Positions 3,560-37,650 of a DNA stretch of 64,000 bases are shown here, one piece after another. Every line of letters starts with the position of its first letter. The first letter of the stretch is position 1. The notes under the pieces are model-generated. The model was not told the DNA's origin and did no database searches. It saw nothing but the letters and a program-made list of their open reading frames with translations. Source of the DNA: a bacterium (GTDB lineage: Bacteria > Patescibacteriota > UBA1384 > CAILIB01); the NCBI GenBank assembly GCA_037131105.1, contig JBAXRQ010000001.1, positions 765,465 through 829,464 of the forward strand, written 5' to 3'. The translations under genes were made by a program, and so were the position numbers.

Positions 3560-5161
3560 TCAATTTTGGGTAACGGCCGAAAACGAGTCGGCGGCCGTGT
3601 AGGTACCCAGCTCGTTGGTACCGCCCCCCAGCGTCTTGTTGCTCAACCAGATAACCGGTGGCGCAGTCGGGGTGGTCACCTCGATGTCATAGCGCCCCGG
3701 CTCTGTCTCTCCGGCAAACTGGCCGGCGCCTCCCGCGATATAGCCGAGCTGCTTTCGGGCTCCGGTCCTGCGTCCCGTGCCTGGGTCAAGCTTCCAGAGG
3801 GTTATGATAAACGGATTGTCACTGCGAACCGGCAGCATGGCGCTGTGGCCGTCCACTGCCGTGCCGTGGACCGAGGCTACCGGGGAGGGAGTTGCCGCTG
3901 CTGTCCTGATCGACAGATACTGGGAATCAACCACCTTTCCATCAAGCTTGCTGGTAAGGACCAGGGCATACATCCCGTCGATAGCCTTGAAAAGAGGGTC
4001 TCCAGTAAAATAGTTCCCGATAACCATCGTCGAGTTCCTGATCCTGACTTTGTTGGCCTTAAAAGCTGAGCAGTCCTGGGTGATGACGTTTGGCTGCAGA
4101 ATCTCAATGGCACGTGCCACCATAGCCTGGTCGTAGGAAGAGGGCAGGTTCGTCACGATGGCATGGCTCACGGCACCCTGTATCCACTGGTTAAGGGCGG
4201 CGGGATCCCCGTTTGCGAGGCTAGAAGGAATCTGGGGAATGTTATTGAGGATATCGACTATCCAAGGCCCGTACTGCGAGTTCCGCAGAGTACTCGCAAT
4301 ACGCGTGACCTCGCCTATCGTCGCCCGAGCGAGTACGGAGTCCGCATTGATGTAATAAAAGTTACAGCTTACTGTGGCAGGATATCTGACGCTCCACTCG
4401 AATTGCTTCGCGTCACCCCTGGGAATTGTCTCCACTCGCTCATTAGCGGGCTTACCGACGTACTCGGTGGTGTTTGTTGAGCCTTGGTAGGTCTTGAGAC
4501 TAAGGATGGCAGCCGCACTATGTGGGTCGGTGGCAAAATTTATGTCGCTTCGACCCCCTGTGGCGGCCATAACCTGGAAAGACTTGGTAGGCGGAAGAAA
4601 TGTCCTCTGACTTTTTATGGCCTGCAGATTGTAGGTCGCACCAGTCGTCCCCAAGAAGAAGTACGAGCCGGAAGATCCGGACGTATCCAGGATCCGGCCT
4701 GAAATCAGGTCCTTTATCTGGACGCCGCCCAAGGGATTTCCATTCTCATCAGTAGTAAGTCCGGATATCCCGTATTTAGGTGCGGCAACTGAGAAGTCAC
4801 TACCTCCCTGGCTAGTGTCCGTTATGGTCACCGAACGGTTGGCAGGGGCGAAGTACTGCCCCGTCAGGCTAGGTGTTACCGTATAGCTCCCTGCTGTCAA
4901 ACCGGTAAGAACATATAGACCTGAGGCGTCCGTGACAGCGGTTGAGCCTGCCACCGAGACCGTGACGCCCGGCAGCCCGGCCCCGCTGTCATAGGTTACG
5001 ACGTGACCGGATATGGTGTAGTTAGCGCCTTTGAGAGCAAAGGGAGATGAGGTGGAAAAGGTAGACGCCCTCACACTGACAGAAGGAGCACATCCGAGCA
5101 GCACGATTCCTGAGACAAGCAGAAATACGAGTAGGGTGCGGATACGGGACGCTCGGTGCAT
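3560..5161 (-). CDS. hypothetical lipoprotein with carboxypeptidase-regulatory-like beta-sandwich repeats
   Basis: Probable start at MHRAS...; lipobox LLGC; repeated G-x-V-x-D-x-x-G-x-P-L-x-G-V motifs. Confidence 0.55.
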   Translation of the reverse strand: MHRASRIRTLLVFLLVSGIVLLGCAPSVSVRASTFSTSSPFALKGANYTISGHVVTYDSGAGLPGVTVSVAGSTAVTDASGLYVLTGLTAGSYTVTPSLTGQYFAPANRSVTITDTSQGGSDFSVAAPKYGISGLTTDENGNPLGGVQIKDLISGRILDTSGSSGSYFFLGTTGATYNLQAIKSQRTFLPPTKSFQVMAATGGRSDINFATDPHSAAAILSLKTYQGSTNTTEYVGKPANERVETIPRGDAKQFEWSVRYPATVSCNFYYINADSVLARATIGEVTRIASTLRNSQYGPWIVDILNNIPQIPSSLANGDPAALNQWIQGAVSHAIVTNLPSSYDQAMVARAIEILQPNVITQDCSAFKANKVRIRNSTMVIGNYFTGDPLFKAIDGMYALVLTSKLDGKVVDSQYLSIRTAAATPSPVASVHGTAVDGHSAMLPVRSDNPFIITLWKLDPGTGRRTGARKQLGYIAGGAGQFAGETEPGRYDIEVTTPTAPPVIWLSNKTLGGGTNELGTYTAADSFSAVTQN

Positions 5162-5338: not shown

Positions 5339-6109
5339 TTAGGCTGGGCGCGGAATAACCGTGGCCATTCCCCACAGCGTTTCGAACTGCTGCCGGTAGC
5401 CGTCGGCAATATTCTTGTTCTCTATGTAAATAATAGAAATGTTCTCAGGATCCATGACCTGCAGGGCCACCTTGTCACCATAAATGACTGTCGCCACCGG
5501 AGTACCGTACGAACCGGGCAGCTCGCGGACCTCAAGCAGCTTCTGGGCGAAGTACTGGGTGGTGAAGTCCTGGCCGCCATAGGAGATCATGCGCAGGTTA
5601 ATATTGCGCTTGGCGTAGATGTTCACATACTTATGGTACATGGGCCGGACCTTATCCAGACTGTAAAAACCGTCGCCGATACCGCCTAGGATAAGGTACT
5701 CACCGTCCTTGCCCACGGTCTTCAAAATATCCTCAAATCCGAATTGAAAGGCGTCCTCGCCTTCACGAACCTGCACTATATGAGGGTAGTGCTGATACAT
5801 GCCCTTCAGCAGAGGCTGCAAGGACTCGGCGGTCTCCATCTTTGCCTTCACCCGGCTGATGAGGATCTCCGGATTGGTAGCGGCAAAATAGGCCCGCTTG
5901 TGCTTGATAAAGGTGCGGACCAGCTTGGCCTCTTCTAAACGCTTTAAGGCCCGGTAGGCCTGCTCACGGTGCAGCTTCACCTTCTCAAGGATCATGCCCA
6001 CCGAAGCCTCACCATAGCGAAGAATCTCGAGGTAGATCTCGGCCTCGTGCTGGGACAGGCCGACCTCCTCAAGTTGACGTAGAACGGACTCGTTACTTAC
6101 GGTGTCCAT
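5339..6109 (-). CDS. TrmB-family transcriptional regulator
   Basis: N-terminal winged HTH (LSQHEAEIYLEILRYGEASVGMILEKVKLHREQAYRALKRLEEAKLV) plus C-terminal TrmB-like domain; diverges from the YcaO locus. Confidence 0.65.
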   Translation of the reverse strand: MDTVSNESVLRQLEEVGLSQHEAEIYLEILRYGEASVGMILEKVKLHREQAYRALKRLEEAKLVRTFIKHKRAYFAATNPEILISRVKAKMETAESLQPLLKGMYQHYPHIVQVREGEDAFQFGFEDILKTVGKDGEYLILGGIGDGFYSLDKVRPMYHKYVNIYAKRNINLRMISYGGQDFTTQYFAQKLLEVRELPGSYGTPVATVIYGDKVALQVMDPENISIIYIENKNIADGYRQQFETLWGMATVIPRPA

Positions 6110-6177
6110 ACTTCCTTCTTTAGGACTTGGATAATCACAGGTCTGATTCAAGATAATTTTTTTATTGTAACATTGTG

Positions 6178-6206
6178 TTGACAATATGTCAATACCAGAC
6201 TATATT
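6178..6206 (+). promoter_or_regulatory. sigma70-like promoter TTGACA-17-TATATT; the -35 box lies inside the perfect palindrome TTGACAATATGTCAA
   Basis: Consensus -35 hexamer, 17-nt spacer and 5/6 -10 hexamer about 28 nt upstream of the small ORF ATG; the palindrome is a candidate operator for the divergent TrmB regulator. Confidence 0.5.
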
Positions 6207-6233
6207 CGGGCTACTTATCTGTAAGCAAAGCCC

Positions 6234-6341
6234 ATGTCCAATAGCCCGATTAAGCCACAAGTTCCTGGCACAGGGTATAACAGCCCGATCAAACCGCAGA
6301 TACCAACGGCCAACAGCCCCATCAAGCCTCAGGTACCCTAA
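6234..6341 (+). CDS. 35-aa repeat peptide MSNSPIKPQVPGTGYNSPIKPQIPTANSPIKPQVP (candidate RiPP precursor)
   Basis: Three 9-codon repeats differ almost only at synonymous third positions (AAT/AAC/AAC, CCG/CCG/CCC, ATT/ATC/ATC, ...), which indicates selection on the peptide; the promoter is upstream and a terminator and YcaO are downstream. Confidence 0.4.
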   Translation: MSNSPIKPQVPGTGYNSPIKPQIPTANSPIKPQVP

Positions 6342-6354
6342 CCAGGGAGCTATC

Positions 6355-6384
6355 GGCCCGTCCGAAAGGGCGGGCCTTTTCTGT
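6355..6384 (+). terminator. intrinsic terminator/attenuator (9-bp GC stem, GAAA loop, UUUUCUGU)
   Basis: ggcccgtcc-gaaa-gggcgggcc followed by a T-tract, between the repeat-peptide ORF and the YcaO start. Confidence 0.5.
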
Positions 6385-7911
6385 ATGCCTACACTCCTCC
6401 GCCCCGACTGGGATCTCATTCCAGGGAAAGATTCTGCGACCCTGCTGCCGCCAGACGGTGCCTCCCCTATTATTTTGAAGGGGGCCGGTTTGACGGAGCT
6501 TTTTTCAGATCTGATTAACGGTATCCCGACACCCAGTCATTCACGACTCATTGCCCGGCTGAAGAAGATGGGTGCGGTGGTCGAGCAGGATATTGTGACA
6601 AAGCCCGTGCCCCAAGAAGACTATCTCGACCTGCTGGAAAATACCGTGATAGGCCCGAATAAGATAGTACGGCAGATCCGCCAGTACCCCATGGCCGACC
6701 AGTTTAAGGACAGCTTTCATGTGTCGTATGCCAGTGGCTTCGCTCCCCGTCTTATCCCCGGACAGTCCTCGCAGAGCGGCGGCTGGGGTGCCGATACCGA
6801 TCCGTTGCTGGCCGATATCAAGTCAGTGGTGGAGGCGGTCGAGCGCTACGCCTTGGCTGAATACGACGAGTCTGCCTTGGTGCAGAAAAAATGGGCGGAG
6901 ATGGAAAGCAAAAGTCCTACAGCTACTCAGATGGGAAGTGACGAGCAGCTACTGGAAACAGCGCACCCTCTTCTCTGGCAGAAATTAGAAGGACTTACTG
7001 TCCCCGGCAGCATCTACGCTCCGCTGGATTTCCTGCACCACCCGGTTGATTACAGCGCTTTGGGACGCCTGCCGGTGGCTCCGCTCAATATCTCGGGTGT
7101 GGCGGCACACCAGAGCCTAGACGCCGCCATAATCAACGGGCTATTGGAGCTCTGCGAGCACGAGGCGCTGATGGTAGCCTGGTATGGCAAGCGGGTTACG
7201 CCTAACATCAGGGTAAAAAGCCTTGATGAGGACTCCCAGGAGCATATAGCCAAGCTGGAGCAGATGGGCTGGAAGATCATCCTGAAGGACATCAGTCTGG
7301 ACCTGGTGCCCGTGGTTATAGTGGTAGGCCTGGGGCCGGTTGGCAAACGGGCAGTTACCATCGGGTCATGCGCAGCCTTTTCCAGCCGGTATGCCGCCAA
7401 GAAGGCGCTGACTGAGGTGGTCAGGACCATTTTGACTGAGGAAGCCAGTCCACCGGTGGTGCCAGTCCTTACCCGGGAGGAAGTGAACGACGTGGCGACC
7501 CACGGGCTGTATTATTCCCGGCATGAGAACCTGGCTGAAGCGGAAATACTGTGGTCAGGCAACGAATGGGTGGACGCCACCGACCTGCTGACGGATGGAA
7601 GCGGCAGGGATCTGGAGGACGCGAAGCGGGAATGGGAAGCGTCGGGGGACCCTATCGGTAAGGAGAAGGAATACGTCACGGACATGCTGCGCACGAAGGG
7701 TATCGCCGCATATTATGCCGAGACTACACCAAAGGAAGTTCAGAAGGCTGGGATACCGCTTTTTGTGGTCGGGACCTTGGCGCCGGAAATGGCCAGGATG
7801 ACGGTGGGGTATGGGAGGAAACCAGCGCAGACGAAACGGTTTATGGCCCTACTAAGCAAATTCGAAAGTGAATCTCCACAAACCCCAGGAGGACTTCACC
7901 CCTTCAGCTAA
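6385..7911 (+). CDS. YcaO-domain protein (ATP-dependent amide-backbone activating enzyme)
   Basis: Motifs EAVERYALAEY and GVAAHQSLDAAIINGLLELCEHEALMVAWY match YcaO signatures; the ORF track starts at 6175 but 6385 is the more likely ATG. Confidence 0.75.
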   Translation: MPTLLRPDWDLIPGKDSATLLPPDGASPIILKGAGLTELFSDLINGIPTPSHSRLIARLKKMGAVVEQDIVTKPVPQEDYLDLLENTVIGPNKIVRQIRQYPMADQFKDSFHVSYASGFAPRLIPGQSSQSGGWGADTDPLLADIKSVVEAVERYALAEYDESALVQKKWAEMESKSPTATQMGSDEQLLETAHPLLWQKLEGLTVPGSIYAPLDFLHHPVDYSALGRLPVAPLNISGVAAHQSLDAAIINGLLELCEHEALMVAWYGKRVTPNIRVKSLDEDSQEHIAKLEQMGWKIILKDISLDLVPVVIVVGLGPVGKRAVTIGSCAAFSSRYAAKKALTEVVRTILTEEASPPVVPVLTREEVNDVATHGLYYSRHENLAEAEILWSGNEWVDATDLLTDGSGRDLEDAKREWEASGDPIGKEKEYVTDMLRTKGIAAYYAETTPKEVQKAGIPLFVVGTLAPEMARMTVGYGRKPAQTKRFMALLSKFESESPQTPGGLHPFS

Positions 7912-8603: not shown

Positions 8604-9557
8604 CTAATCCTGAACACCCACAGTTATCCTTGGTGAGTTCCTATAGTAAATAGTCTCTGGAAGTCTAGGCAGCTTCACGTCCTCCCCCAGGGCCAGTTCG
8701 GTATCGGCCATTCTATTGGCGACCCGTCTTTCCAGCAGCTTTTCATCGAGAAACCTGCCTCTTTCAGTATCAAGGTTGGGATTTCCCCCCAACCTTGCAG
8801 CCATGCTGTCGCAGATATCCTCCGCCGGACTGGTCCTTGCGTAATCCGTAACGCAGCGATCAGGCTCCTGCACCTGCAGGTTGGCAGGGTCCGGGCCATC
8901 CCACTCAAATGTGTCCGTCCACTCATTGATAACATCCTGTGAGGCCAGATGGTGGGCACCCTCGTGAATAAGGGTTCCTTTGAAGTTGGAAACCAGTGCC
9001 GCCCGGTGGCCGCCCTCAAAAGCAGGGGGATAGAGCTCGATTCCGTTTCGGCCGCCTTCCACGCCTAGGGAGCCGTTGCCGTTCATTGGCTCCCCTGTCT
9101 TCAGCCTTCCTTCCGATTCTTGGTCATTGATAAGGATGTAGCCCAGGGTCTGGGTGGCCTTTCCCTCGCCGATAGCGGCATACGTATCCACGACCTCCTT
9201 CAGCTCACCTAGCTCTTGTTCACTCAAGGGGCGCAGCCAGTTATACAGCTCAATCTCCCCGCCTGACGCAAGCCGCAGTCTCACCATTTCTAATGGTGCG
9301 CCTTTCTCCTTCCATTTTGGCTTATGCCACCAGAAATAGTTTGGCAGCTCGCTAGTAATGAGCCGTTTAATCTCCTCATCGGACTCGTTTCCTTCTAGAT
9401 TAAGAGGGATCGCATCAGCGTATTCGGGAGTGCCCTTTTCTGCCTTGGCGATAGCGAAATCATGGGTAGACTCATCCTTGGTGTTCTCCTGGAGCGGTGG
9501 GACAAAGTCCGGCTGCTGCTCAGGAAGTCGTCCCAAGTTAATTGGAAATTCATTCAT
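8604..9557 (-). CDS. hypothetical protein with HExxH (HEGAH) zinc-peptidase-like motif
   Basis: LIHEGAHHL motif; likely start MNEFPINLG, overlapping the upstream stop. Confidence 0.5.
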   Translation of the reverse strand: MNEFPINLGRLPEQQPDFVPPLQENTKDESTHDFAIAKAEKGTPEYADAIPLNLEGNESDEEIKRLITSELPNYFWWHKPKWKEKGAPLEMVRLRLASGGEIELYNWLRPLSEQELGELKEVVDTYAAIGEGKATQTLGYILINDQESEGRLKTGEPMNGNGSLGVEGGRNGIELYPPAFEGGHRAALVSNFKGTLIHEGAHHLASQDVINEWTDTFEWDGPDPANLQVQEPDRCVTDYARTSPAEDICDSMAARLGGNPNLDTERGRFLDEKLLERRVANRMADTELALGEDVKLPRLPETIYYRNSPRITVGVQD

Positions 9558-28498: not shown

Positions 28499-28741
28499 CC
28501 CGACAACGCTGAGCAGAGGAACCCTGCAGGCCACAGTAATTAACCACCTAATGCTTCAAGAGGTACTTGGGCGAAGGACACTGAAAGTGTTTTTCACCCA
28601 TGACCGATACCGAGCGCATAGAGCTCAAGATAGAGCAGAAGCTAAGGCCACTTATTGCGGACACTGCGGAGCGTATGAAGGTAGCAAGGGAAATCAATGC
28701 CCTAGCCAAAATCCTCATCAGCGCCTACCGGACACAAGCCC

Positions 28742-30319
28742 ATGATAAGCGCCAACCCGCCACAATCCGAACTAAAGCGAGCAATCGTCTACATCCGAGT
28801 CTCCACCAAGGAACAAGTTGACGAGGGAAACAGCCTGGCTACCCAGGAGCGGCTTTGTCGTGACTACGCCAAGAAACAGGGTATAACGGTCAAAGAGGAA
28901 GGTATCTTCAGAGAGGAGGGCGAAAGCGCCAAGACCGCCAACCGGACGGTGCTCAAGAAGATGATTACCTATGCCAGTCTCCATAAGAACGAGATCGACT
29001 GTCTGCTTATCTACCGGATTGACCGGCTAGCTCGGGAAACCAGGGACTACAGCCATCTGAAAGGCTTTTTCGGCTCACTTGGCATCAGGGTTATTTCAAT
29101 TTCCGAGAACTTTGAAGACGACCCTGTAGGCCGCTTTATCGAGAATACTCTGGCCGGCGTCGCCCAGCTTGATAATGAAATCAGGGCTGAGCGCAGCAAG
29201 AACGGCATGGTTGACGCTGTTCGGGAAGGTCGCTGGGTCTGGAAAGCCCCTCTGGGCTATATAAACGCTCGGGTACATGGCAAGAAGAACATTAAGCCTA
29301 ATCCAGCTGGCAATACGGTAACGCTCCTACGTGAAGCCTGGGAACTGGTGGATAGCGGCTTTTCTATCGAGGCCACCCGCCGCATAATGGAAAAGAAGGG
29401 CTTGGTAAGCGAACGAGGAAAAGCAGTCAGCAAGAGCCAGTTTCAAAAGCTTTTTCACCATCCCATTTACAAAGGGGTAATCGACAAGTTTGGCCTCACC
29501 ATTCTCAGTGACGCTATTGAACCCATCGTACCGCCAGAACTGTTTGATCGGGTGCACCTGAAGCTGACCGGCGCTTATCACTTCCCCGAGAAATACCTAA
29601 AGGCCAACCCTGAGTTTCCACTACGGGGTGTCATGTTCTGCAAATACGGCCACAGAATGACTGCTAGCGCCCCTAGAGGCAATGGCGGGCGGTATCCTAA
29701 GTACCACTGCCATTTGTGTCGAGGAGTAGGCACGAGCCACAATAAAACCACCGTAGAGACCCGCTTTAAGACATACATCAACTACATGAGCTACCCAGGA
29801 GAGCTCAAGGAGGGCTTAGTAGTGGCCATTATGGGAAACTGGGAGCAAGAACAGCAAGTAAACCGCAAGCAGATCGCCAAGCTCAAGAAGCGATTACTAG
29901 AGCTAGACGCTGAGGATAACGAAATAGGCCGCAAGAACATTGCCGGCGTCTTTAGCGATGAGCACGCCAAGAAGATGTTGGCGGCGAACAGCCTGGAGCG
30001 TACCAAGATAAACCTAGAGCTCAGTGGCTACGACTATTTAGATCAGGATTTAGAAGAAATGATTGAAGATGGCGCAAGCTCTTTGGAGGACATAAGCGCT
30101 TTGTGGGAAGGACTTGAGGACATCCACATCAAGCAACGGTTCCAAAAATGGCTATTTCCCCTTGGGGTGGTGTATGACGGAGAGAAATTTGGAACCAGCC
30201 AATTACCCCTTTGCATATCTATTAAAAAAGACCTTTCCAACGAAAAGTCTCTTTTGGTGGACCCCACCGGATTCGAACCGGTCGCCTCCTCGGTGCAAAC
30301 GAGGCGCTCTACCAAATGA
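28742..30319 (+). CDS. large serine recombinase; 3' end overlaps tRNA-Ala on the opposite strand
   Basis: VYIRVSTKEQ, ...RIDRLAR, recombinase and zinc-ribbon regions; the last ~20 codons are read through the tRNA. Confidence 0.8.
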   Translation: MISANPPQSELKRAIVYIRVSTKEQVDEGNSLATQERLCRDYAKKQGITVKEEGIFREEGESAKTANRTVLKKMITYASLHKNEIDCLLIYRIDRLARETRDYSHLKGFFGSLGIRVISISENFEDDPVGRFIENTLAGVAQLDNEIRAERSKNGMVDAVREGRWVWKAPLGYINARVHGKKNIKPNPAGNTVTLLREAWELVDSGFSIEATRRIMEKKGLVSERGKAVSKSQFQKLFHHPIYKGVIDKFGLTILSDAIEPIVPPELFDRVHLKLTGAYHFPEKYLKANPEFPLRGVMFCKYGHRMTASAPRGNGGRYPKYHCHLCRGVGTSHNKTTVETRFKTYINYMSYPGELKEGLVVAIMGNWEQEQQVNRKQIAKLKKRLLELDAEDNEIGRKNIAGVFSDEHAKKMLAANSLERTKINLELSGYDYLDQDLEEMIEDGASSLEDISALWEGLEDIHIKQRFQKWLFPLGVVYDGEKFGTSQLPLCISIKKDLSNEKSLLVDPTGFEPVASSVQTRRSTK

Positions 30320-30330
30320 GCTAGGGGCCC
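30255..30330 (-). tRNA. tRNA-Ala(TGC), CCA encoded
   Basis: Cloverleaf with G3:U70, anticodon loop TTTGCAC, T-arm GGTTCGAATCC. Confidence 0.85.
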
Positions 30331-30497
30331 ATGAGCGAGTCAAGCGCAGACCTGCTTGCAGGGATGCATTTGACGAGCGAATGGGCACGAGCCGAAGGCG
30401 GAGGCCCTTACGGCAAAAAGCAAAACACATGCACAAAGCCAAGAAAACCTACTCCCGACTCTTCGAGAGCATACCAGATTCCCCACCTGCCGGCAAC

Positions 30498-30707
30498 CTA
30501 GGACTGTCCCGGTATGCCGTTGGCGATCACCCAGTAGCCGGCCAGGATGGCGGCGATACCGATGAGCCTCCAGGCAGTATAGGTTCCGCCGGGGCCCAGG
30601 CGACGCTCTGCCCAGCCTAGATGACCGAAGATCTTTACGATCCTGAAGCAGTAGATCTCAATGATGACGCCGGCAAGGATGGCTCCGATTCCAATAAGAT
30701 AGTGCAT
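30498..30707 (-). CDS. small two-TM membrane protein
   Basis: Start at MHYLIG within the longer ORF; the upstream part overlaps the PrsW gene. Confidence 0.3.
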   Translation of the reverse strand: MHYLIGIGAILAGVIIEIYCFRIVKIFGHLGWAERRLGPGGTYTAWRLIGIAAILAGYWVIANGIPGQS

Positions 30708-30786
30708 GCTACCAGTATAACAGCAGGTGGTGGTCGGTTGGCAAATCCCGTACAATAAGAGCACCTTAGCAGCATCGGCATTCCTC

Positions 30787-31551
30787 ATGCCTGACATAGG
30801 CAGCGACAGCACCGTCCGCCTGGCGGTGATCATCTTCGAGCTCGTCCTGAGCCTCTCCCTCATCGTCTGGATGCGGCGCACCCACCGCAGCGTCACCGAG
30901 GACTGGAGGTTCTATGCCAAGCTGCTGTTCTACGGCGGCCTGACCGCCCTGGCAGCCGGCCTGATTGAGATCCGCTACTCTTTTAACCTTCAGCAGCTCC
31001 AGCTGACCGCCCCGGACGTCATGGCACGCTACGGCACCCTCTACGGCCTGCTGAACAACCTTTCCGGCAGCCTCATCGAGGAGCTGGCCAAGTACACGGT
31101 GGCCGTCTTCACCATCCTGAACGCCAAGCACGTGCACAAGCTGAGCGACGCCATTATCTACATGATCATCATCGGGCTGGGCTTCTCGCTGGTCGAGGAC
31201 GTCTTCTTCCTGCTCAATCCCGACACCATCGCCCCCTACCGACTGATCAGCTTCTTCGTCCATTCCGGTACTAGCGCCATCATCGGCTACAGCCTGGGCC
31301 GCTTCATGTCAGGCGTCATCAAGTACTGGGAGGTGTTCCTGGCCATCCTCTGGGCCATTACCCTGCACTTCGCCTACAACTTCTCGGTCAGCGAGACCTT
31401 CCAGTACTCCGGCCTGCTGGTAGCCTTCATCACCATCTACATCTCATTGCAGATCTTCATCCTCTTCCGCCGGGCCATCGAAGAAGAATACCGCCTGGGC
31501 CACCGGTTCCGCGGCGTACCGACCCAGCGGCTGCTCAATCTTCACCAGTAA
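30787..31551 (+). CDS. PrsW-family intramembrane metalloprotease
   Basis: EExxK (IEELAKY), FxxxH (FFVHSG) and HxxxN (HFAYN) motifs in a polytopic membrane protein. Confidence 0.6.
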   Translation: MPDIGSDSTVRLAVIIFELVLSLSLIVWMRRTHRSVTEDWRFYAKLLFYGGLTALAAGLIEIRYSFNLQQLQLTAPDVMARYGTLYGLLNNLSGSLIEELAKYTVAVFTILNAKHVHKLSDAIIYMIIIGLGFSLVEDVFFLLNPDTIAPYRLISFFVHSGTSAIIGYSLGRFMSGVIKYWEVFLAILWAITLHFAYNFSVSETFQYSGLLVAFITIYISLQIFILFRRAIEEEYRLGHRFRGVPTQRLLNLHQ

Positions 31552-31559
31552 CGCCTTCT

Positions 31560-32183
31560 ATGAAACCCTCAAGACTCGAAGCCCTGGCCGACGGCATCTT
31601 CGCCATTGTCATGACTCTGCTGGTATTGGAGATCCACGTCCCCCACCTTGAGGAAGGCCTCAGCCTGGCTACGGCTGCCTCCCATGCCATCACCGACATT
31701 GGACCCAAGCTGGTAAGCTTCATCGTCAGCTTCATGATCCTGGCTATCTACTGGAGCTCGCACCACATGCTCTTCGCCAAGCTGAAGGAGATAAACTTCA
31801 GGTTCATGTGGCTCAATGTCTACTTTCTGATGACTATCAGCCTCATCCCCTTCTCCACCGCCTTCATCGGGTCGTATCCACTGGTGCAGGCCAGCCAGAT
31901 ATTCTATGCTCTTAACCTGATAATCGGCGGCCTCATCCTCTTCCATATGATCAAGTACGCTGTCTTCCACGGCCGGCTGACCGGAGATGAGAGCGCCTCG
32001 CGCGAGTTCAAGATCAATGTGACCGGAAAGATTCTCTTCCCAGCCGCCACCTATCTCCTGGCCATCGCCGTCTCATTCTTTGAGCCGCGCCTCAGCCTAG
32101 CCTTACTGGTGGTGGGACCCCTCATCTACTTCATTCCTATTGATACGAGACTCTGGCAGGCGCTTACCGGGAGGGCACAGTGA
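31560..32183 (+). CDS. TMEM175/DUF1211 family membrane protein (putative K+ channel)
   Basis: Signature RLEALADGIFAIVMTLLVLEI at the N-terminus. Confidence 0.7.
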   Translation: MKPSRLEALADGIFAIVMTLLVLEIHVPHLEEGLSLATAASHAITDIGPKLVSFIVSFMILAIYWSSHHMLFAKLKEINFRFMWLNVYFLMTISLIPFSTAFIGSYPLVQASQIFYALNLIIGGLILFHMIKYAVFHGRLTGDESASREFKINVTGKILFPAATYLLAIAVSFFEPRLSLALLVVGPLIYFIPIDTRLWQALTGRAQ

Positions 32184-32509
32184 GCATAAAGCGTTGGCTG
32201 GCTACTGCGGTCCTTTCACTGATCGGCGGAGCCTGGCTTTCCAATGCCCTGAGTCAGGCCGAATGGACCTACCAGAAGGGAATATACCTCTCCAGCGGCT
32301 GGCCAGGCGGTTACAGCAGGAATCCAGGCCTCGGGTTTCCCTTCACCACTGGCAACAACCCTCCGGCCAGGTGCTTCTGCGCTATCGACCATAACTCCAT
32401 CGCCGATCTTCTCAACGCCATCTTCTACATCGCCCTGGTGTTCATCGTCATAACAGTCATTCAGATAGCTTGGACATCGTTACGCAAAACTATCACTGTC
32501 AGGCAATAA
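32180..32509 (+). CDS. small hypothetical membrane protein
   Basis: 109 aa, two hydrophobic segments; 4-nt overlap with the upstream gene. Confidence 0.4.
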   Translation: MSIKRWLATAVLSLIGGAWLSNALSQAEWTYQKGIYLSSGWPGGYSRNPGLGFPFTTGNNPPARCFCAIDHNSIADLLNAIFYIALVFIVITVIQIAWTSLRKTITVRQ

Positions 32510-32520
32510 CCCCACCCATT

Positions 32521-33261
32521 ATGGAACATGGCCACACCGTAGTAGAGAAAAAGTCCGCCGGCCACCTAGCCGCAATGGCTGCCCTTATCCTTATCCCCGC
32601 CCTGGTGGCCGGAGGAGGCACCTACGCTTACCAGCGTAACCAGCAGACCAAGTCAGAGAATGACCTCCAGGCCCAGATCACTACTTTGAAGGGCAAGCTT
32701 GCCGCTACGCCCACGCCAAGCCCTACCGCCAGCGCCACGGCCGTGATCTCGACTCCTGATACTACCACGGCAACATGGACCACTTACACCAACGCCACGT
32801 ACGGCTTTACCTTCAAATATCCCAGCACCTACAAGGGCGTAAAACAGTTCCTTAACCAGACCACTCAGAAGCTGGAGTCTTCGGACGACCTTCTGCAGCT
32901 GACCACCAACCAAGATGCTACATCGGTTGGGTCTGAAGGATGCAATGCCCAGTACGAGATGATAATTGAGGAGAACCAGGGGAAATTCGATACTCTGGGG
33001 GCCGCTTCGTATTATGAACATTTCACAGATCCAACCATTAAGACAGTGAAAATAGGTGGAAAGCCCGCCTTCCGCATCACCGGCACCAACAATGACCAGG
33101 TGGCGTATGGGGTCGTGGGCTCGAAGAATGAGATGGCCGTCATCAATATGGACAGCCATATACTCCACTTCAGTACCTGTGAAGGAGGCAGCACTACCCC
33201 TTATACGCCAAATGTCGCGGAATACGAGAAGATCCTGTCAACCTTCACGTTCTCGAAATAG
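32521..33261 (+). CDS. hypothetical membrane-anchored secreted protein
   Basis: N-terminal TM, Thr/Pro/Ser-rich linker, then a globular domain; terminator follows. Confidence 0.5.
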   Translation: MEHGHTVVEKKSAGHLAAMAALILIPALVAGGGTYAYQRNQQTKSENDLQAQITTLKGKLAATPTPSPTASATAVISTPDTTTATWTTYTNATYGFTFKYPSTYKGVKQFLNQTTQKLESSDDLLQLTTNQDATSVGSEGCNAQYEMIIEENQGKFDTLGAASYYEHFTDPTIKTVKIGGKPAFRITGTNNDQVAYGVVGSKNEMAVINMDSHILHFSTCEGGSTTPYTPNVAEYEKILSTFTFSK

Positions 33262-33275
33262 ATAGCTACGGAATA

Positions 33276-33316
33276 CAGAAAGGCTCCGGCGTTATGCCGG
33301 AGCCTTTCTGTATATT
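33276..33316 (+). terminator. intrinsic terminator (15-bp perfect stem)
   Basis: cagaaaggctccggc-gttat-gccggagcctttctg followed by tatatt. Confidence 0.5.
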
Positions 33317-33319
33317 GAG

Positions 33320-33671
33320 CGGTCAGTATCTTTTGGTGGGCGAACGAACCATATCCGCCCGTCAAGCCGTTGCACGTCATTATGCGCTTCGCGCCGCTTC
33401 CTGCCCGAGCGCAGGAGCGCGATCGTCGAGTTCTTATATGCCCTCCGATCCGACGCGGTTACTTCCGCTGAACGTTTATCAAGCTCTGGTGGGCGATGAT
33501 GGACTTGCCAGGTCAGACGGCAACGTTCGCTGAAGGGCTCACGAGCGAACCATCGACCTCGTCATTATGGCGGGTCAGTATCTTTTGGTGGGCGATGATG
33601 GACTTGCCAGGTCAGATGGCAACGTTCGCTGAAGGGCTCACGAGCGAACCATCGACCTCGTCATTATGGCC
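33320..33671 (-). repeat. three tandem tRNA-Ile 3'-fragment copies with a ~40-nt T-loop insertion (two 99-bp units at 33473..33671 plus one degenerate copy)
   Basis: Each unit, read in tRNA sense, is GCCATAATGACGAGGTCGATGGTTCG[insert]AGTCCATCATCGCCCACCA; the units differ by 1 nt. Confidence 0.6.
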
Positions 33672-33729
33672 GAGTTTCTATATACATTCCGATCCGGCCC
33701 GTTTGCCTCCTTGATTCATAGTTCTCTCA

Positions 33730-33806
33730 TGGTGGGCGATGATGGACTCGAACCATCGACCTCGTCATTATCAGTGACGCGCTCTAACCACCTGAGCTAA
33801 TCGCCC
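33730..33806 (-). tRNA. tRNA-Ile(GAT), CCA encoded
   Basis: GGGCGATTAGCTCAGGTGGTTAGAGCGCGTCACTGATAATGACGAGGTCGATGGTTCGAGTCCATCATCGCCCACCA. Confidence 0.85.
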
Positions 33807-33840
33807 TCCATGAGAGAACTAAGTTTTGAAAGATGCAAAC

Positions 33841-33877
33841 GATCAGTGACGCGCTCTAACCACCTGAGCTAATCAGA
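33841..33877 (-). repeat. duplicated 5' fragment of tRNA-Ile (acceptor/D-arm/anticodon-stem portion)
   Basis: Exact copy of tRNA-Ile nt ~5-36, lying upstream of the intact gene. Confidence 0.5.
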
Positions 33878-34039
33878 CGAGGAGCAATACTGGCGATCAT
33901 GCGTGCATGAACATCAGGATTGCGACGAGTCTGATATCAGAGATATCGCCCTCCAAAAGATACCGATATATCAAACTCGTTGCCGGCCCTTCGTAAGCAT
34001 CCTTCTCGTCCTAATTTGACCTTCCCACTCTACCAAAAA

Positions 34040-34084
34040 ATAAGGTTATAGGAAAGCCCCGGACGCTACGGCCCCGGGGCTTTC
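34040..34084 (-). terminator. bidirectional intrinsic terminator (10-bp GC stem flanked by A- and T-runs)
   Basis: gaaagccccgg...ccggggctttc; downstream of the 34098..34400 gene. Confidence 0.5.
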
Positions 34085-34097
34085 TGTGACATCGCAC

Positions 34098-34400
34098 TCA
34101 CATTGTCATGATGCGTACATCTTCGGCAGGAACGTTGAAGGCCTTAGCAAAGGATTCTCTGCACTTTTCCAGGTCCTCCATTACCTGGCGAGAGGCGCGC
34201 ACCCTTACTACAAGCCCCTGTTCATTCACCCTAATAGAGCATTTCGAGACTTTGTGCGACGTTAGGATCGCAGCCGTCATCCCTTTTGCTGTACGGGGAA
34301 GATTCAGCGTATAGCCTCCGAACGTTACGAACAACCCGCTATGCTCACCTAGTGGGCTACGCCGTTCCTTTTCTTTAGCTTTTAACGGATGTCGCGCCAT
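34098..34400 (-). CDS. hypothetical protein
   Basis: 100-aa ORF followed by a terminator. Confidence 0.4.
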   Translation of the reverse strand: MARHPLKAKEKERRSPLGEHSGLFVTFGGYTLNLPRTAKGMTAAILTSHKVSKCSIRVNEQGLVVRVRASRQVMEDLEKCRESFAKAFNVPAEDVRIMTM

Positions 34401-34421
34401 AATTACCCCTTTCAGAAAACC

Positions 34422-35153
34422 TCACCATGCCTCACTGCTATGCATGAACGGCCTGAGCGACCACAGATGGCTGCCCATAGGAGCCGCAACCTCAAAACCG
34501 GCAAAAGCCGGGAAGCTAAAATGCTGGCTGACGCTCTGAACAATCCGGTCATTCCACAGGCATCCGGGCTCACTTACAGGAAGCACGACGTGAAGATTGG
34601 TCTGGCGATTCATGCTAGTCAACACTTGTGTAAGCGCTTCGGGACTGCCTGGATCAAGTGAATAGTAATACGCCGCCGAGCCCCCCAGTATCATGGATGC
34701 CGAGAGCAGGCGTTCCCAACCCATTCCCGAACAATCGAGAATACATGGTCCTGTCGTACCAGGGATGTAGTCTCGAAAGCACTCTTCCGCGCCACTCTCA
34801 CCATCCAGGGGCACTCCATCGTGGACACCCATAAGCCAGCCTCCGCAGAAAAAGATGCTGCGCCTGTGTTCCCGTGCAAAGTGCTCGGGTATAAGGCCAC
34901 TATGCAGCCGTTCTCCCCGGGCATTCAAGGGAAGGATGAAACGGACGTCCTGAACCTTCTGCCAGTCAGTGAGATGCGTGTCCAAGGTTTGGATAAGCCC
35001 TTCGTCTGGGCCAAGGTTGACTTCCCTCACCCCCCTATCCGTGGCCGCTGGGTGCAGCATTGCCCCTATCAGCCCACTGCTCACAGCACTTCCTACCGCA
35101 TTCACCACGATCAGATCATACTCATTCCTTACTATCATGTCGTTATCCCCCAT
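34422..35153 (-). CDS. hypothetical protein (possible Rossmann-like enzyme)
   Basis: 243-aa ORF; YDLIVVNAVGSAVSSGLIGA near the N-terminus. Confidence 0.45.
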   Translation of the reverse strand: MGDNDMIVRNEYDLIVVNAVGSAVSSGLIGAMLHPAATDRGVREVNLGPDEGLIQTLDTHLTDWQKVQDVRFILPLNARGERLHSGLIPEHFAREHRRSIFFCGGWLMGVHDGVPLDGESGAEECFRDYIPGTTGPCILDCSGMGWERLLSASMILGGSAAYYYSLDPGSPEALTQVLTSMNRQTNLHVVLPVSEPGCLWNDRIVQSVSQHFSFPAFAGFEVAAPMGSHLWSLRPFMHSSEAW

Positions 35154-35259
35154 TTCCTCTTTGTACCTGCTGCACAGTTAACCATATTTGCCATAGATTG
35201 ACAATGATAAGTGCCCAAAAGAAAAGCACCGCTATACATCTGCGGTGCTTTCAGGATAA

Positions 35260-35332
35260 TGTCCCCAGAAGGAATTGAACCTTCGATCTCCGGCGTGACT
35301 GGCCGGCGCTCTAGCCACTGAGCCATGGGGAC
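35260..35332 (-). tRNA. tRNA-Asp(GTC)
   Basis: Acceptor GTCCCCA/TGGGGAC, anticodon loop CAGTCAC, T-loop TTCAATT. Confidence 0.8.
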
Positions 35333-35433
35333 GGTGATAATGCTCTACCACTGAGCTACTCCCGCGTTCCAACTGCATAATCAGGTCCGACTATGCGGGA
35401 GACAGGACTCGAACCTGCGACCTTTACCACCAC
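35333..35433 (-). other. two halves of one tRNA in permuted order: 3' half (35394..35433), 27-nt spacer, 5' half (35333..35365)
   Basis: The 5' half GCGGGAGTAGCTCAGTGGTAGAGCATTATCACC and the 3' half GTGGTGGTAAAGGTCGCAGGTTCGAGTCCTGTCTCCCGCA have complementary acceptor (GCGGGAG/CTCCCGC) and anticodon-stem (TTATC/GGTAA) strands. Confidence 0.4.
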
Positions 35434-35505
35434 AGCGGATGACGAGACTCGAACTCGCGTCTTCACCGGCGAAAGTGAGGCTCTAACCAATTGAGCTACA
35501 TCCGC
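35434..35505 (-). tRNA. tRNA with atypical anticodon arm (4-bp stem with a mismatch, or an 8-nt loop TTTCGCCG); possibly Arg(TCG)
   Basis: Perfect acceptor (GCGGATG/CATCCGC), D-arm and T-arm (TTCGAGT); the anticodon region is CTCAC-TTTCGCCG-GTGAA. Confidence 0.5.
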
Positions 35506-35517
35506 AGTACGACTGAA

Positions 35518-35591
35518 TCGGGCTGGTGGGATTTGAACCCACGACCTCCTGATCCCGAACCAAGTGCGCTACCAAGCTGCGCTACAGCCCG
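35518..35591 (-). tRNA. tRNA-Pro(CGG)
   Basis: CGGGCTGTAGCGCAGCTTGGTAGCGCACTTGGTTCGGGATCAGG...; C1:G72; anticodon loop TTCGGGA. Confidence 0.8.
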
Positions 35592-35603
35592 AACAAACGA
35601 CCA

Positions 35604-35675
35604 AGGAGGGGGCAGGATTCGAACCTGCGATAACACACCATGAATGTGTGCCTTGGCCCACTAGGCGACCCCTCC
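35604..35675 (-). tRNA. tRNA-Met/Ile2(CAT), elongator type
   Basis: Acceptor GGAGGGG/CCCCTCC, anticodon loop TTCATGG; the anticodon stem ACACA/TGTGT is not initiator-like. Confidence 0.75.
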
Positions 35676-35870
35676 CTTTGCCTTATAAACTTCAAAAGGC
35701 TCTTGCCCCTTCATATTTGAAGAGATAAGAGCCCCTTGAAGGGACTTCGACAAGAGAGCATCAAACATTCTGGATGTTGCAGTGAACCGCCATCGCATAT
35801 GGAATGCGACCGACCTGGATAATGGAATACTGGGTTAGACTTACGTCTACCCAACCATTATCGTTCCTTT

Positions 35871-37650
<1,780 letters not shown>

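Follow-up and report, generated by a model that had tools for sequence, protein, structure and literature searches.

A candidate RiPP cassette of Patescibacteria combining a short leaderless repeat peptide, a predicted RRE-YcaO fusion and a linked TrmB-type regulator

YcaO enzymes act on peptides made by the ribosome and modified after translation (RiPPs) and on proteins, and several described systems resemble the locus studied here. Linear azole peptide (LAP) clusters consisting of a YcaO, a nitroreductase and a peptidase gene have been reported in genomes of the candidate phyla radiation (CPR; Sharrar et al. 2020, PMC7298704). In the bottromycin system (BotA, BotC/BotCD), the core peptide is N-terminal and without a leader, recognition proceeds via a follower, and the YcaOs have no E1-like or Ocin-ThiF partner (PMC7136475). 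The amidine of klebsazolicin is formed between Ser1 and Gln2 in a YcaO-dependent manner that needs a free N-terminus (PMC7136475), and streptamidine-family precursors carry their motif one to three times and depend on a conserved Ser3 for amidine formation (PMC8442711). Cyanobactin heterocyclases (PatD/TruD/LynD, MusD) combine an N-terminal part containing a RiPP recognition element (RRE) with a YcaO domain, and their PatE-type precursors hold multiple cores. We compared these systems with a YcaO gene, and a 35-aa repeat peptide encoded directly upstream of it, in a 64-kb stretch of a Patescibacterial genome (contig JBAXRQ010000001.1, positions 765,465–829,464, assembly GCA_037131105.1), hereafter called the window.

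The window YcaO was part of a cassette of about 2.6 kb that recurred in every one of the 16 distinct loci with a YcaO of this clade, the window included (YcaO identity 42–59%). The order of its elements was a TrmB-family regulator, a divergent operator/promoter region, one or two small open reading frames (ORFs) for precursor peptides, in most loci a hairpin, and an RRE-YcaO fusion gene (Table 1). The peptide ORF was located directly upstream of the YcaO gene in 16/16 loci. We estimate a probability of about 0.7 that this arrangement is a three-part, self-contained RiPP-type cassette, that is, a minimal, leaderless, multi-unit system with the peptide as YcaO substrate; the substrate role, the chemistry, the product and the biological role are what we infer. 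Identified members of the clade were Candidatus Berkelbacteria or 'Patescibacteria group'; clade members P0009 and P0017 were outside the set of contexts compared. No neighbour was conserved beyond the cassette, and when 14 flanking proteins of ten loci were compared with each other by all-against-all BLAST, no relationship emerged. Carriage by phages was unsupported, as no YcaO relative was found in viral contigs.

A sequence-only reading of the window had proposed a RiPP-like locus with a near-consensus promoter, a small repeat-encoding ORF, a hairpin followed by a T-tract and a YcaO gene. The promoter, the ORF with its translation, the repeat pattern and the YcaO gene were all recovered. 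The 9-bp hairpin with its GAAA loop was also found, whereas the T-tract proved to be short. The RiPP-like character of the locus gained support from the invariable co-occurrence of peptide and YcaO, from the selection acting on the peptide, from the RRE-like fold and from the LAP cluster of the sister family, as described below. The regulator gene with its own divergent promoter, and a palindrome across both promoters, came in addition to what that reading had listed.

The small ORF translates to MSNSPIKPQVPGTGYNSPIKPQIPTANSPIKPQVP. Its three 27-nt units (6240–6266, 6279–6305 and 6312–6338) differed at eight of nine codons, with seven synonymous differences and one V/I swap. Tandem Repeats Finder, run on positions 6100–6500, made no call, as spacers split the DNA copies and these have diverged too far; the repeat exists at the protein level. 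Across the loci, the unit consensus was N-[ST]-[PA]-[ILVM]-K-P-Q-x-(P), present in one to four copies. In the 27 units tallied, N at position 1, K at position 5 and Q at position 7 were invariant, position 2 was S (23 units) or T (4 units), position 3 was P or A, and position 4 was aliphatic. The divergent peptide of locus L011 kept N-S...Q-[VI] in four of four units, and further variants were found in L007, L016, L017, L018 and L019. The three peptides with N-T-P all fell in one YcaO clade of a quick neighbour-joining distance tree that carried no support values. The precursors were 11–50 aa long, the shortest (L002 and L008) having 11–12 residues. The first unit started at ORF residue 2–3 in 14–15 of the 16 loci, and an N-terminal leader peptide was therefore not present there. 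Methionine aminopeptidase specificity predicts removal of Met before S, A or G and its retention before N. The predicted mature N-termini (S-N-S, A-N-S, G-N-S, M-N-S/T) had Ser or Thr as the third residue in 14–15/16 loci. The C-terminal tails were unrelated between loci (e.g. SA, VVAE, QAS, KKKKGK and TTKAPESTTKEN). Both peptides of L014 had a lysine-rich tail and the L019 peptide a similar basic tail (KKRTKKSRSK), which might aid uptake or nucleic-acid or ribosome binding. The first peptide gene of L014 was preceded by a G/A-rich, ribosome-binding-like sequence.

The differences between units were concentrated at third codon positions. Counts for codon positions 1:2:3 were 24:6:102 within loci and 127:36:371 between loci. 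Among the units, Ser codons switched between AGC and TCN, a change that needs two substitutions, and Ser was kept. In a six-frame test of 33 units, only the sense frame was free of stops throughout, with an amino-acid identity of 0.77 compared with 0.27–0.56. These patterns indicate that the peptide ORF is in all probability translated and that its amino-acid sequence is under purifying selection. The motif was found nowhere else in the window. With the peptide alignment as the query, a profile search of 5.8 billion predicted proteins found only two relatives and no larger protein family with the motif. The sole other match was weak (E = 0.07; P0227, 85 aa, ENA); this protein contains three SP(S)PIKPQLTE(S/L)G repeats without Asn and may be unrelated or a distant cousin of the unit.

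The YcaO gene was identified with Pfam PF02624 (E = 6e-35), and its predicted structure had a high-confidence YcaO fold. The structural comparison figures were 28.9 for the M. kandleri YcaO, 28.9 for the M. jannaschii YcaO, 28.2 for LynD, 25.9 for McbD and 19.0 for the E. coli YcaO. The N-terminal domain, modelled alone (aa 1–78, predicted local distance difference test score 80), had RREs as its best structural matches. A Pfam scan of 16 slices (E ≤ 10) and a profile search of the PDB returned only noise for this domain, which we consider a predicted RRE-like domain with similarity at the level of the fold only. The Mg/ATP motifs ExxER and ExxE were invariant, and E150/E153/R154 and E255/E258 aligned with the motifs of MJ1094. 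A start of the YcaO gene at GTG 6175, giving a 578-aa ORF, was rejected, since relatives start at a conserved M-x-K-Y-x-L-x-P-x-W-D and the extension was not conserved. This frame (6175–7911, +) overlaps the peptide ORF in another frame; it is probably open by chance and could mislead gene callers. One public call of the identical protein (P0001) begins 35 codons late.

The YcaO clade is small and sharply bounded. A word-indexed search of 5.8 billion proteins returned the identical protein and 17 relatives at 42–58% identity, and an exhaustive search of 1.84 billion cluster representatives with a hidden Markov model returned four hits above 725 bits, the next being at 277 bits. The next full-length relatives (150–190 bits) share the same architecture of approximately 510 aa, including the N-terminal domain, carry the canonical ERD motif and an HPF[SAP] C-terminus, and come from the same phylum (Yanofskybacteria, WWE3). 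In the one context of this sister family that was examined (P0176; L020–L022; L020 3966–7752), the genes encode a SagB-type nitroreductase, the YcaO, an adjoining 60-aa precursor that combines a normal leader with a Cys/Gly-rich, NCG/QCG-rich core (MKEKLQIKVTKRNLTKELAENSMRCGNCGQCGGGGGNCGGQCGGGKCGGGKVTPALHHKR), and a DUF2268 protein. By its gene content this context is a textbook LAP cluster. On these comparisons, the window enzyme appears to descend from peptide cyclodehydratases and not from the E. coli housekeeping type. The latter had been put forward as an alternative in the sequence-only reading and was not borne out: the E. coli YcaO was structurally far from the window enzyme rather than its closest relative, and a linked peptide was present.

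A different reading of these data takes the peptide for a genuine small protein or signal that shares its regulation with the YcaO without being its substrate, and has the enzyme modify a cellular protein, for example a ribosomal one. YcaOs that act on proteins exist, and the best PDB sequence match of the window enzyme was the McrA-thioamidating MJ1094 (1.8e-11). One report also links the E. coli YcaO to uL16 thioamidation (PMC13063428). The cassette is without leader, protease and exporter, and it is housekeeping-like in size in small genomes. On the other hand, peptide and YcaO were strictly adjacent in every locus while all surroundings changed, and peptide variants tracked the YcaO phylogeny. 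The enzyme carries a fused RRE-like domain and has its sister family in LAP clusters, TfuA occurred in none of the locus neighbourhoods, and no protein family with the motif was found in the 5.8-billion-protein collection or in the rest of the window. The archaeal McrA-glycine YcaOs (MJ1094, M. kandleri) differ in having a large protein substrate, no adjacent peptide gene and no RRE-like domain, and the E. coli-type YcaO (RimO accessory factor/uL16 thioamidation) shares with the window enzyme the YcaO ATP-binding domain. We therefore regard a protein substrate as improbable, although it is the best surviving competitor of the peptide-substrate reading.

If the peptide is the substrate, a strong promoter would drive a short transcript for a leaderless precursor in which N-[S/T]-[P/A]-I-K-P-Q-x-(P) occurs one to four times. 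With a leader missing and the tails unrelated, the fused RRE-like domain would bind the unit itself, probably its I-K-P-Q-x-P part, in a follower-type recognition. The ATP-dependent YcaO domain would then activate the backbone amide between the invariant Asn and Ser/Thr. The restriction of position 2 to Ser or Thr beside an invariant Asn is as expected for a hydroxyl nucleophile, and this part of the unit favours cyclodehydration or amidine formation. The most likely product would be a (methyl)oxazoline at each unit, which would stay unoxidised because no dehydrogenase is present; within the peptide-substrate reading we give the oxazoline not quite an even chance. A six-membered amidine of the klebsazolicin/streptamidine type at the N-terminal unit would be a second candidate, because the mature peptide is predicted to have Ser/Thr in third place, and we consider it unlikely. 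A thioamide or another modification is tentatively ranked between these two. The chemistry considered in the sequence-only reading (Ser cyclodehydration, amidine or thioamide) thus remains the right range.

The same cassette could also house a chemistry of another kind, either a backbone thioamide or an ATP-dependent cleavage of the multi-unit peptide as by MusD. By sequence, the nearest solved structures were the TfuA-independent thioamide enzyme MJ1094 and then MusD, which catalyses ATP-dependent peptide-bond hydrolysis (PMC10885120). A multi-unit precursor needs cleavage, and no protease was linked. Invariant Cys257 and His259 of LELCEHEA, the sequence in place of the canonical second Mg/ATP motif, could, speculatively, support sulfur transfer or altered catalysis. 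Against this stand the Ser/Thr-only position 2 next to Asn and the NCBIfam scores, in which a SagD-type cyclodehydratase model was highest (114.7 bits, below its cut-off) and the methanogenesis-marker-1 thioamidation model TIGR03266 reached 60.6 bits (cut-off 365). The HPFS C-terminus is moreover common to the azole-forming sister family, and a Pro-rich C-terminus marks azoline-forming YcaOs (PMC8442711). No sulfur-delivery gene was linked. Taken as a separate explanation, such a chemistry is a poor candidate, ranked slightly behind the protein substrate.

Expression of the cassette would be controlled by the divergent TrmB orthologue, which is predicted to bind an operator overlapping both promoters. 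The −35 hexamer TTGACA of the peptide-YcaO promoter was invariant across loci, and TAnAnT followed 17 nt downstream in most of them (e.g. L001, L002, L004, L009, L011, L012, L013 and L017). The operator block includes TTGTAACATTGTGTTGACA (6165–6183) and the perfect palindrome TTGAC-AATAT-GTCAA (6178–6192), which spans both promoters. In the alignment of the 16 intergenic regions, the pattern AACA...G...CA..GT.AAT....TGTTGTAACA.TGTGTTGACA was at least 80% conserved in loci whose proteins are 42–85% identical. The position between TGTTGTAACA and TGTGTTGACA was (A/T), and the block was preceded by ...GTCAAT.... in the alignment. In the window and its closest relatives L001 and L002, this upstream half-site was replaced by GTCAAT just past the −35 hexamer, which accounts for the TTGAC-N5-GTCAA palindrome. 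The operator 19-mer was unique in the window (0.03 occurrences expected by chance); three exact matches elsewhere were all in one phage coding sequence, consistent with chance.

The divergent TrmB gene adjoined the peptide and YcaO genes in all loci (in L002 as a partial gene at the locus start, read from the sequence). These orthologues were 58–85% identical to the window TrmB, compared with 22–28% for other TrmB paralogues on the same contigs, and the linked protein is therefore considered a dedicated regulator. It was better conserved than the YcaO (58–85% versus 42–59%). The winged-helix domain (PF01978) covers residues 38–106 of the listed ORF, and the C-terminal ligand domain had a weak DUF7436 match. 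In L015 (1450–9086) and L016 (3199–4702), two to five TrmB-family paralogues occurred within about 10 kb, several of them paired divergently with unrelated genes (HamA_HO-like, metallo-beta-lactamase-fold, aminotransferase). TrmB-type regulators seem to be a general device for module control in these Patescibacterial genomes.

The hairpin between peptide and enzyme in the window (6355..6376) has eight GC pairs in its stem and is followed by TTTTCTGT. Its predicted folding energy was −24.3 kcal/mol (z = −3.3 compared with shuffled sequences), and it ends 8 nt before the YcaO ATG. In 14/16 loci, a hairpin of −17 to −33 kcal/mol filled the 34–55 nt that separate the stop codon of the peptide from the YcaO ATG, ending about 1–11 nt before the YcaO start; stem sequences varied by locus and the T-run was often poor. 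L007 and L016 were without a hairpin, and their YcaO genes started 9–15 nt past the peptide stop. Since the hairpin abuts the YcaO ATG, there is no room for a separate promoter, and the enzyme would be expressed by read-through. Most plausibly, the hairpin sets a high peptide-to-enzyme ratio by partial termination, by occlusion of the YcaO start, or by both; letting through part of transcription or translation, it would yield far more peptide than enzyme. No competing antiterminator pairing was predicted, and the hairpin was kept in the minimum free energy and centroid folds of the whole window leader.

The attenuators trpL, hisL and tnaC likewise have a terminator-like hairpin close behind a short ORF and ahead of the regulated gene. 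A Pro codon followed by TAA is a poor termination context. That the peptide is a regulatory leader without function as a product, in which stalling at Pro-stop or Pro-rich sites controls the terminator and the YcaO, agrees with the hairpin located 1–20 nt past the ORF in 14/16 loci, with the Pro-TAA ends of several peptides (among them those of the window, L001, L002 and L004) and with a YcaO gene without its own promoter, but it is very unlikely given that L007 and L016 keep the peptide without a hairpin, that the Pro-stop is not conserved in the variable tails listed above, that selection is on the full 8–9-residue amino-acid motif and not on codon content, that the copy number is 1–4 with two separate peptide genes in L014, that no alternative antiterminator pairing was found in the window transcript fold, and that the downstream enzyme has a peptide-recognition fold and peptide cyclodehydratases as its closest relatives.

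Several observations weigh against the peptide-substrate reading. No conserved leader, protease, exporter, immunity gene or dehydrogenase that could account for release, export and self-protection of a product was found near the cassette. Each unit contains exactly one heterocyclisable residue, the Ser/Thr that always follows Asn, which is much sparser than in typical LAP cores. No obvious Shine-Dalgarno sequence preceded the window peptide ORF; in many relatives a GGAGG-type site precedes the ATG. The second Mg/ATP motif reads LELCEHEA, with E-H-E where the canonical E-x-x-E-R-D of the sister family has E-R-D, and the chemistry may therefore be non-canonical. With its invariant Cys and His, this motif could stand for a YcaO chemistry not yet described.

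The search for partner genes covered the 30 largest ORFs of the window, among which no TfuA, ThiF/E1-like protein, nitroreductase, protease or exporter was detected. No nitroreductase-family gene that could encode an FMN-dependent (SagB/McbC-type) dehydrogenase was present in these ORFs or in the 16 neighbourhoods, and none of the neighbourhoods contained a separate E1-like/Ocin-ThiF partner gene. A major facilitator superfamily gene (799–2064) and a transglutaminase-like gene (9550–10122) in the window were considered as partners and rejected, as neither recurred in the other loci. A further window gene, about 3.4 kb downstream from the cassette, encodes a 668-aa ATPase (11324–13330, −; AAA_5, dynein-related/McrB-like, with weak STAND-NTPase matches) and is possibly a defence gene; it was not conserved in the other loci.

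Table 1. Features of the cassette in the window and precursor peptides of related loci. Positions are those of the window unless a locus is named;., no strand.
Feature	Position	Strand	Evidence, remark or sequence
TrmB-family regulator, 256 aa	5339..6109	-	Pfam PF01978 TrmB, 2.3e-11
Conserved operator/promoter block, presumed TrmB binding region	6133..6192	.	Alignment of 16 intergenic regions
Divergent TrmB promoter, TTGACA-17-TACAAT with TG	6164..6192	-	11/12 match, extended -10 TG; overlaps the + strand promoter
Sigma-70-type promoter of the peptide-YcaO transcript, TTGACA-17-TATATT	6178..6206	+	11/12 match
Precursor-peptide ORF, 35 aa, three NSPIKPQ(V/I)P units	6234..6341	+	Translation; homologous ORFs in 16 loci
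GC-rich hairpin, 9 bp, GAAA loop, short T-run	6355..6384	+	Proposed partial terminator, translation-limiting or mRNA-stabilising element
YcaO N-terminal domain, about aa 1-70, RRE-like fold	6385..6594	+	Structural comparison
RRE-YcaO fusion, 508 aa; YcaO domain aa 139-469 (nt 6799-7791); conserved C-terminal HPFS	6385..7911	+	
Peptide of L001			MANSPIKPQIPMAGNSPIKPQIP
Peptide of L002			MANSPIKPQVP
Peptide of L004			M(NL)NSAIKPQLPYAGNSAIKPQLP
Peptide of L008			MNSPIKPQLPSA
Peptide of L009			MGNSPLKPQVPQHGNSAIKPQIPGHNSAIKPQIPVVAE
Peptide of L011 (divergent)			MYTSNSAIEQQVSMNSTPETQVVRFSANSAFEGQVVNFVGNSAVEAQI
Peptide of L012			MNSPIKPQVPQASNSPMKPQAPIAWNSPIKPQVPQAS
Peptide of L013			MANTPIKPQLGGNTPLKPQVPSTDDQE
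Peptides of L014, two separate one-unit genes in tandem	4869-4975 (L014)		MNTPIKPQIPSKKKKGK and MANTPIKPQVPAKKKK
Peptide of L015			MNSPMKPQLPAANSPMKPQLPGLNSPLKPQVPSAANSPMKPQLPQA

The cassette could be distinguished from each of the described systems. The CPR LAP clusters are the nearest, as their YcaOs are the closest full-length family and their precursor gene likewise adjoins the YcaO; in place of the nitroreductase, DUF2268 protein and leader-bearing precursor of the one sister context examined, the window family has a TrmB regulator, a leaderless repeat peptide of 11–50 aa and LELCEHEA for E-x-x-E-R-D. The leaderless precursor and the lack of an E1-like partner are shared with bottromycin. 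Unlike the window family, bottromycin clusters contain numerous genes for tailoring, along with a transporter and a hydrolase that cleaves the follower, and their precursor is single-copy and contains Cys; in the window family, the YcaO has an RRE-like domain fused to it, and there are repeats of the unit. In klebsazolicin and streptamidine, a free N-terminus two residues before a required Ser3 gives the amidine, a geometry matched by the predicted mature N-termini of the cassette peptides. These systems depend on removal of a leader and on an E1-like partner (KlpC/AmiB), a dehydrogenase and a hydrolase, none of which was linked here, and their peptides have no sequence similarity to the window unit. 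Cyanobactin precursors also hold several units, but the enzymes are about 750–780 aa long with an E1-like domain, the precursors have a long leader and recognition sequences, and the PatA/PatG proteases are required; none of this was seen here. The attenuators differ in that the window family has no predicted antiterminator, lacks the hairpin in 2/16 loci, conserves amino acids over codons and varies in copy and gene number.

No paper containing 'SPIKPQ' or describing this cassette was found in the literature covered, which left out most subscription journals. Searches on YcaO together with CPR, Patescibacteria or TrmB returned only generic surveys and nitroreductase-linked LAP clusters. The peptide-YcaO family is thus apparently undescribed. 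Its logic is that of a RiPP operon, and it is therefore not a new kind of system. Compared with known YcaO RiPP families, it is missing the leader, the protease, the dehydrogenase and the E1-like/Ocin-ThiF/TfuA partner. Features that were not found described are the 8–9-residue unit present one to four times, precursors of 11–12 residues, the dedicated TrmB with a near-invariant operator, and the altered active-site motif.

Elsewhere in the window, a 16S rRNA gene (35874–37650, −) was 1777 nt long, compared with a model of 1533 positions, the surplus of about 240 nt being insertions. Nowhere in the 64 kb did a 23S rRNA gene reach the threshold. The 16S rRNA gene was followed by tRNA-Met, tRNA-Pro, an odd tRNA and tRNA-Asp (rRNA/tRNA region including 30255–35676). 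The genes for tRNA-Ile and tRNA-Ala were 3.4 kb apart, with protein-coding ORFs between them, one of which encoded a PrsW-type protease. An unlinked, insertion-bearing rRNA gene fits a CPR genome. For the odd tRNA (35434–35505, −; 57.3 bits with the Rfam tRNA model), ARAGORN assigned no identity and gave an 'anticodon (cg)' of two bases, which may point to an intron or to an unusual anticodon loop. Two large serine recombinases were encoded on the + strand (20888–22468 and 28742–30319), the second ORF running into tRNA-Ala. They bracketed an SF1 helicase fused to a restriction-endonuclease-like domain (24023–27541, −) and a PD-(D/E)XK nuclease (23109–24008, −), and the region 20888–30330 resembles a mobile or defence element that has integrated at a tRNA gene.

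Tentatively, and with less than even odds, the family may represent a new RiPP class of ultra-small Patescibacteria, whose parts would be a single regulator, a single RRE-YcaO fusion and a precursor without a leader. The enzyme would read an 8–9-residue unit and install an Asn-derived oxazoline or an N-terminal amidine, and the proline-rich, cationic product would serve as a TrmB-sensed intracellular or intercellular signal, or as a binder of the ribosome exit tunnel directed against a host bacterium. Most RiPP enzymes are believed to depend on a leader or follower of some length. If our reading is true, an RRE-YcaO that reads the very unit it modifies would be a compact and engineerable mode of recognition. 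Nearly all of the peptides described here escape gene callers, an annotation gap which suggests that much small-peptide biology is invisible to current annotation. The genomes of CPR bacteria are tiny, and a life on other cells is assumed for these organisms. The survival of the cassette through genome reduction would then suggest that it is important for signalling, interaction with a host or self-regulation.

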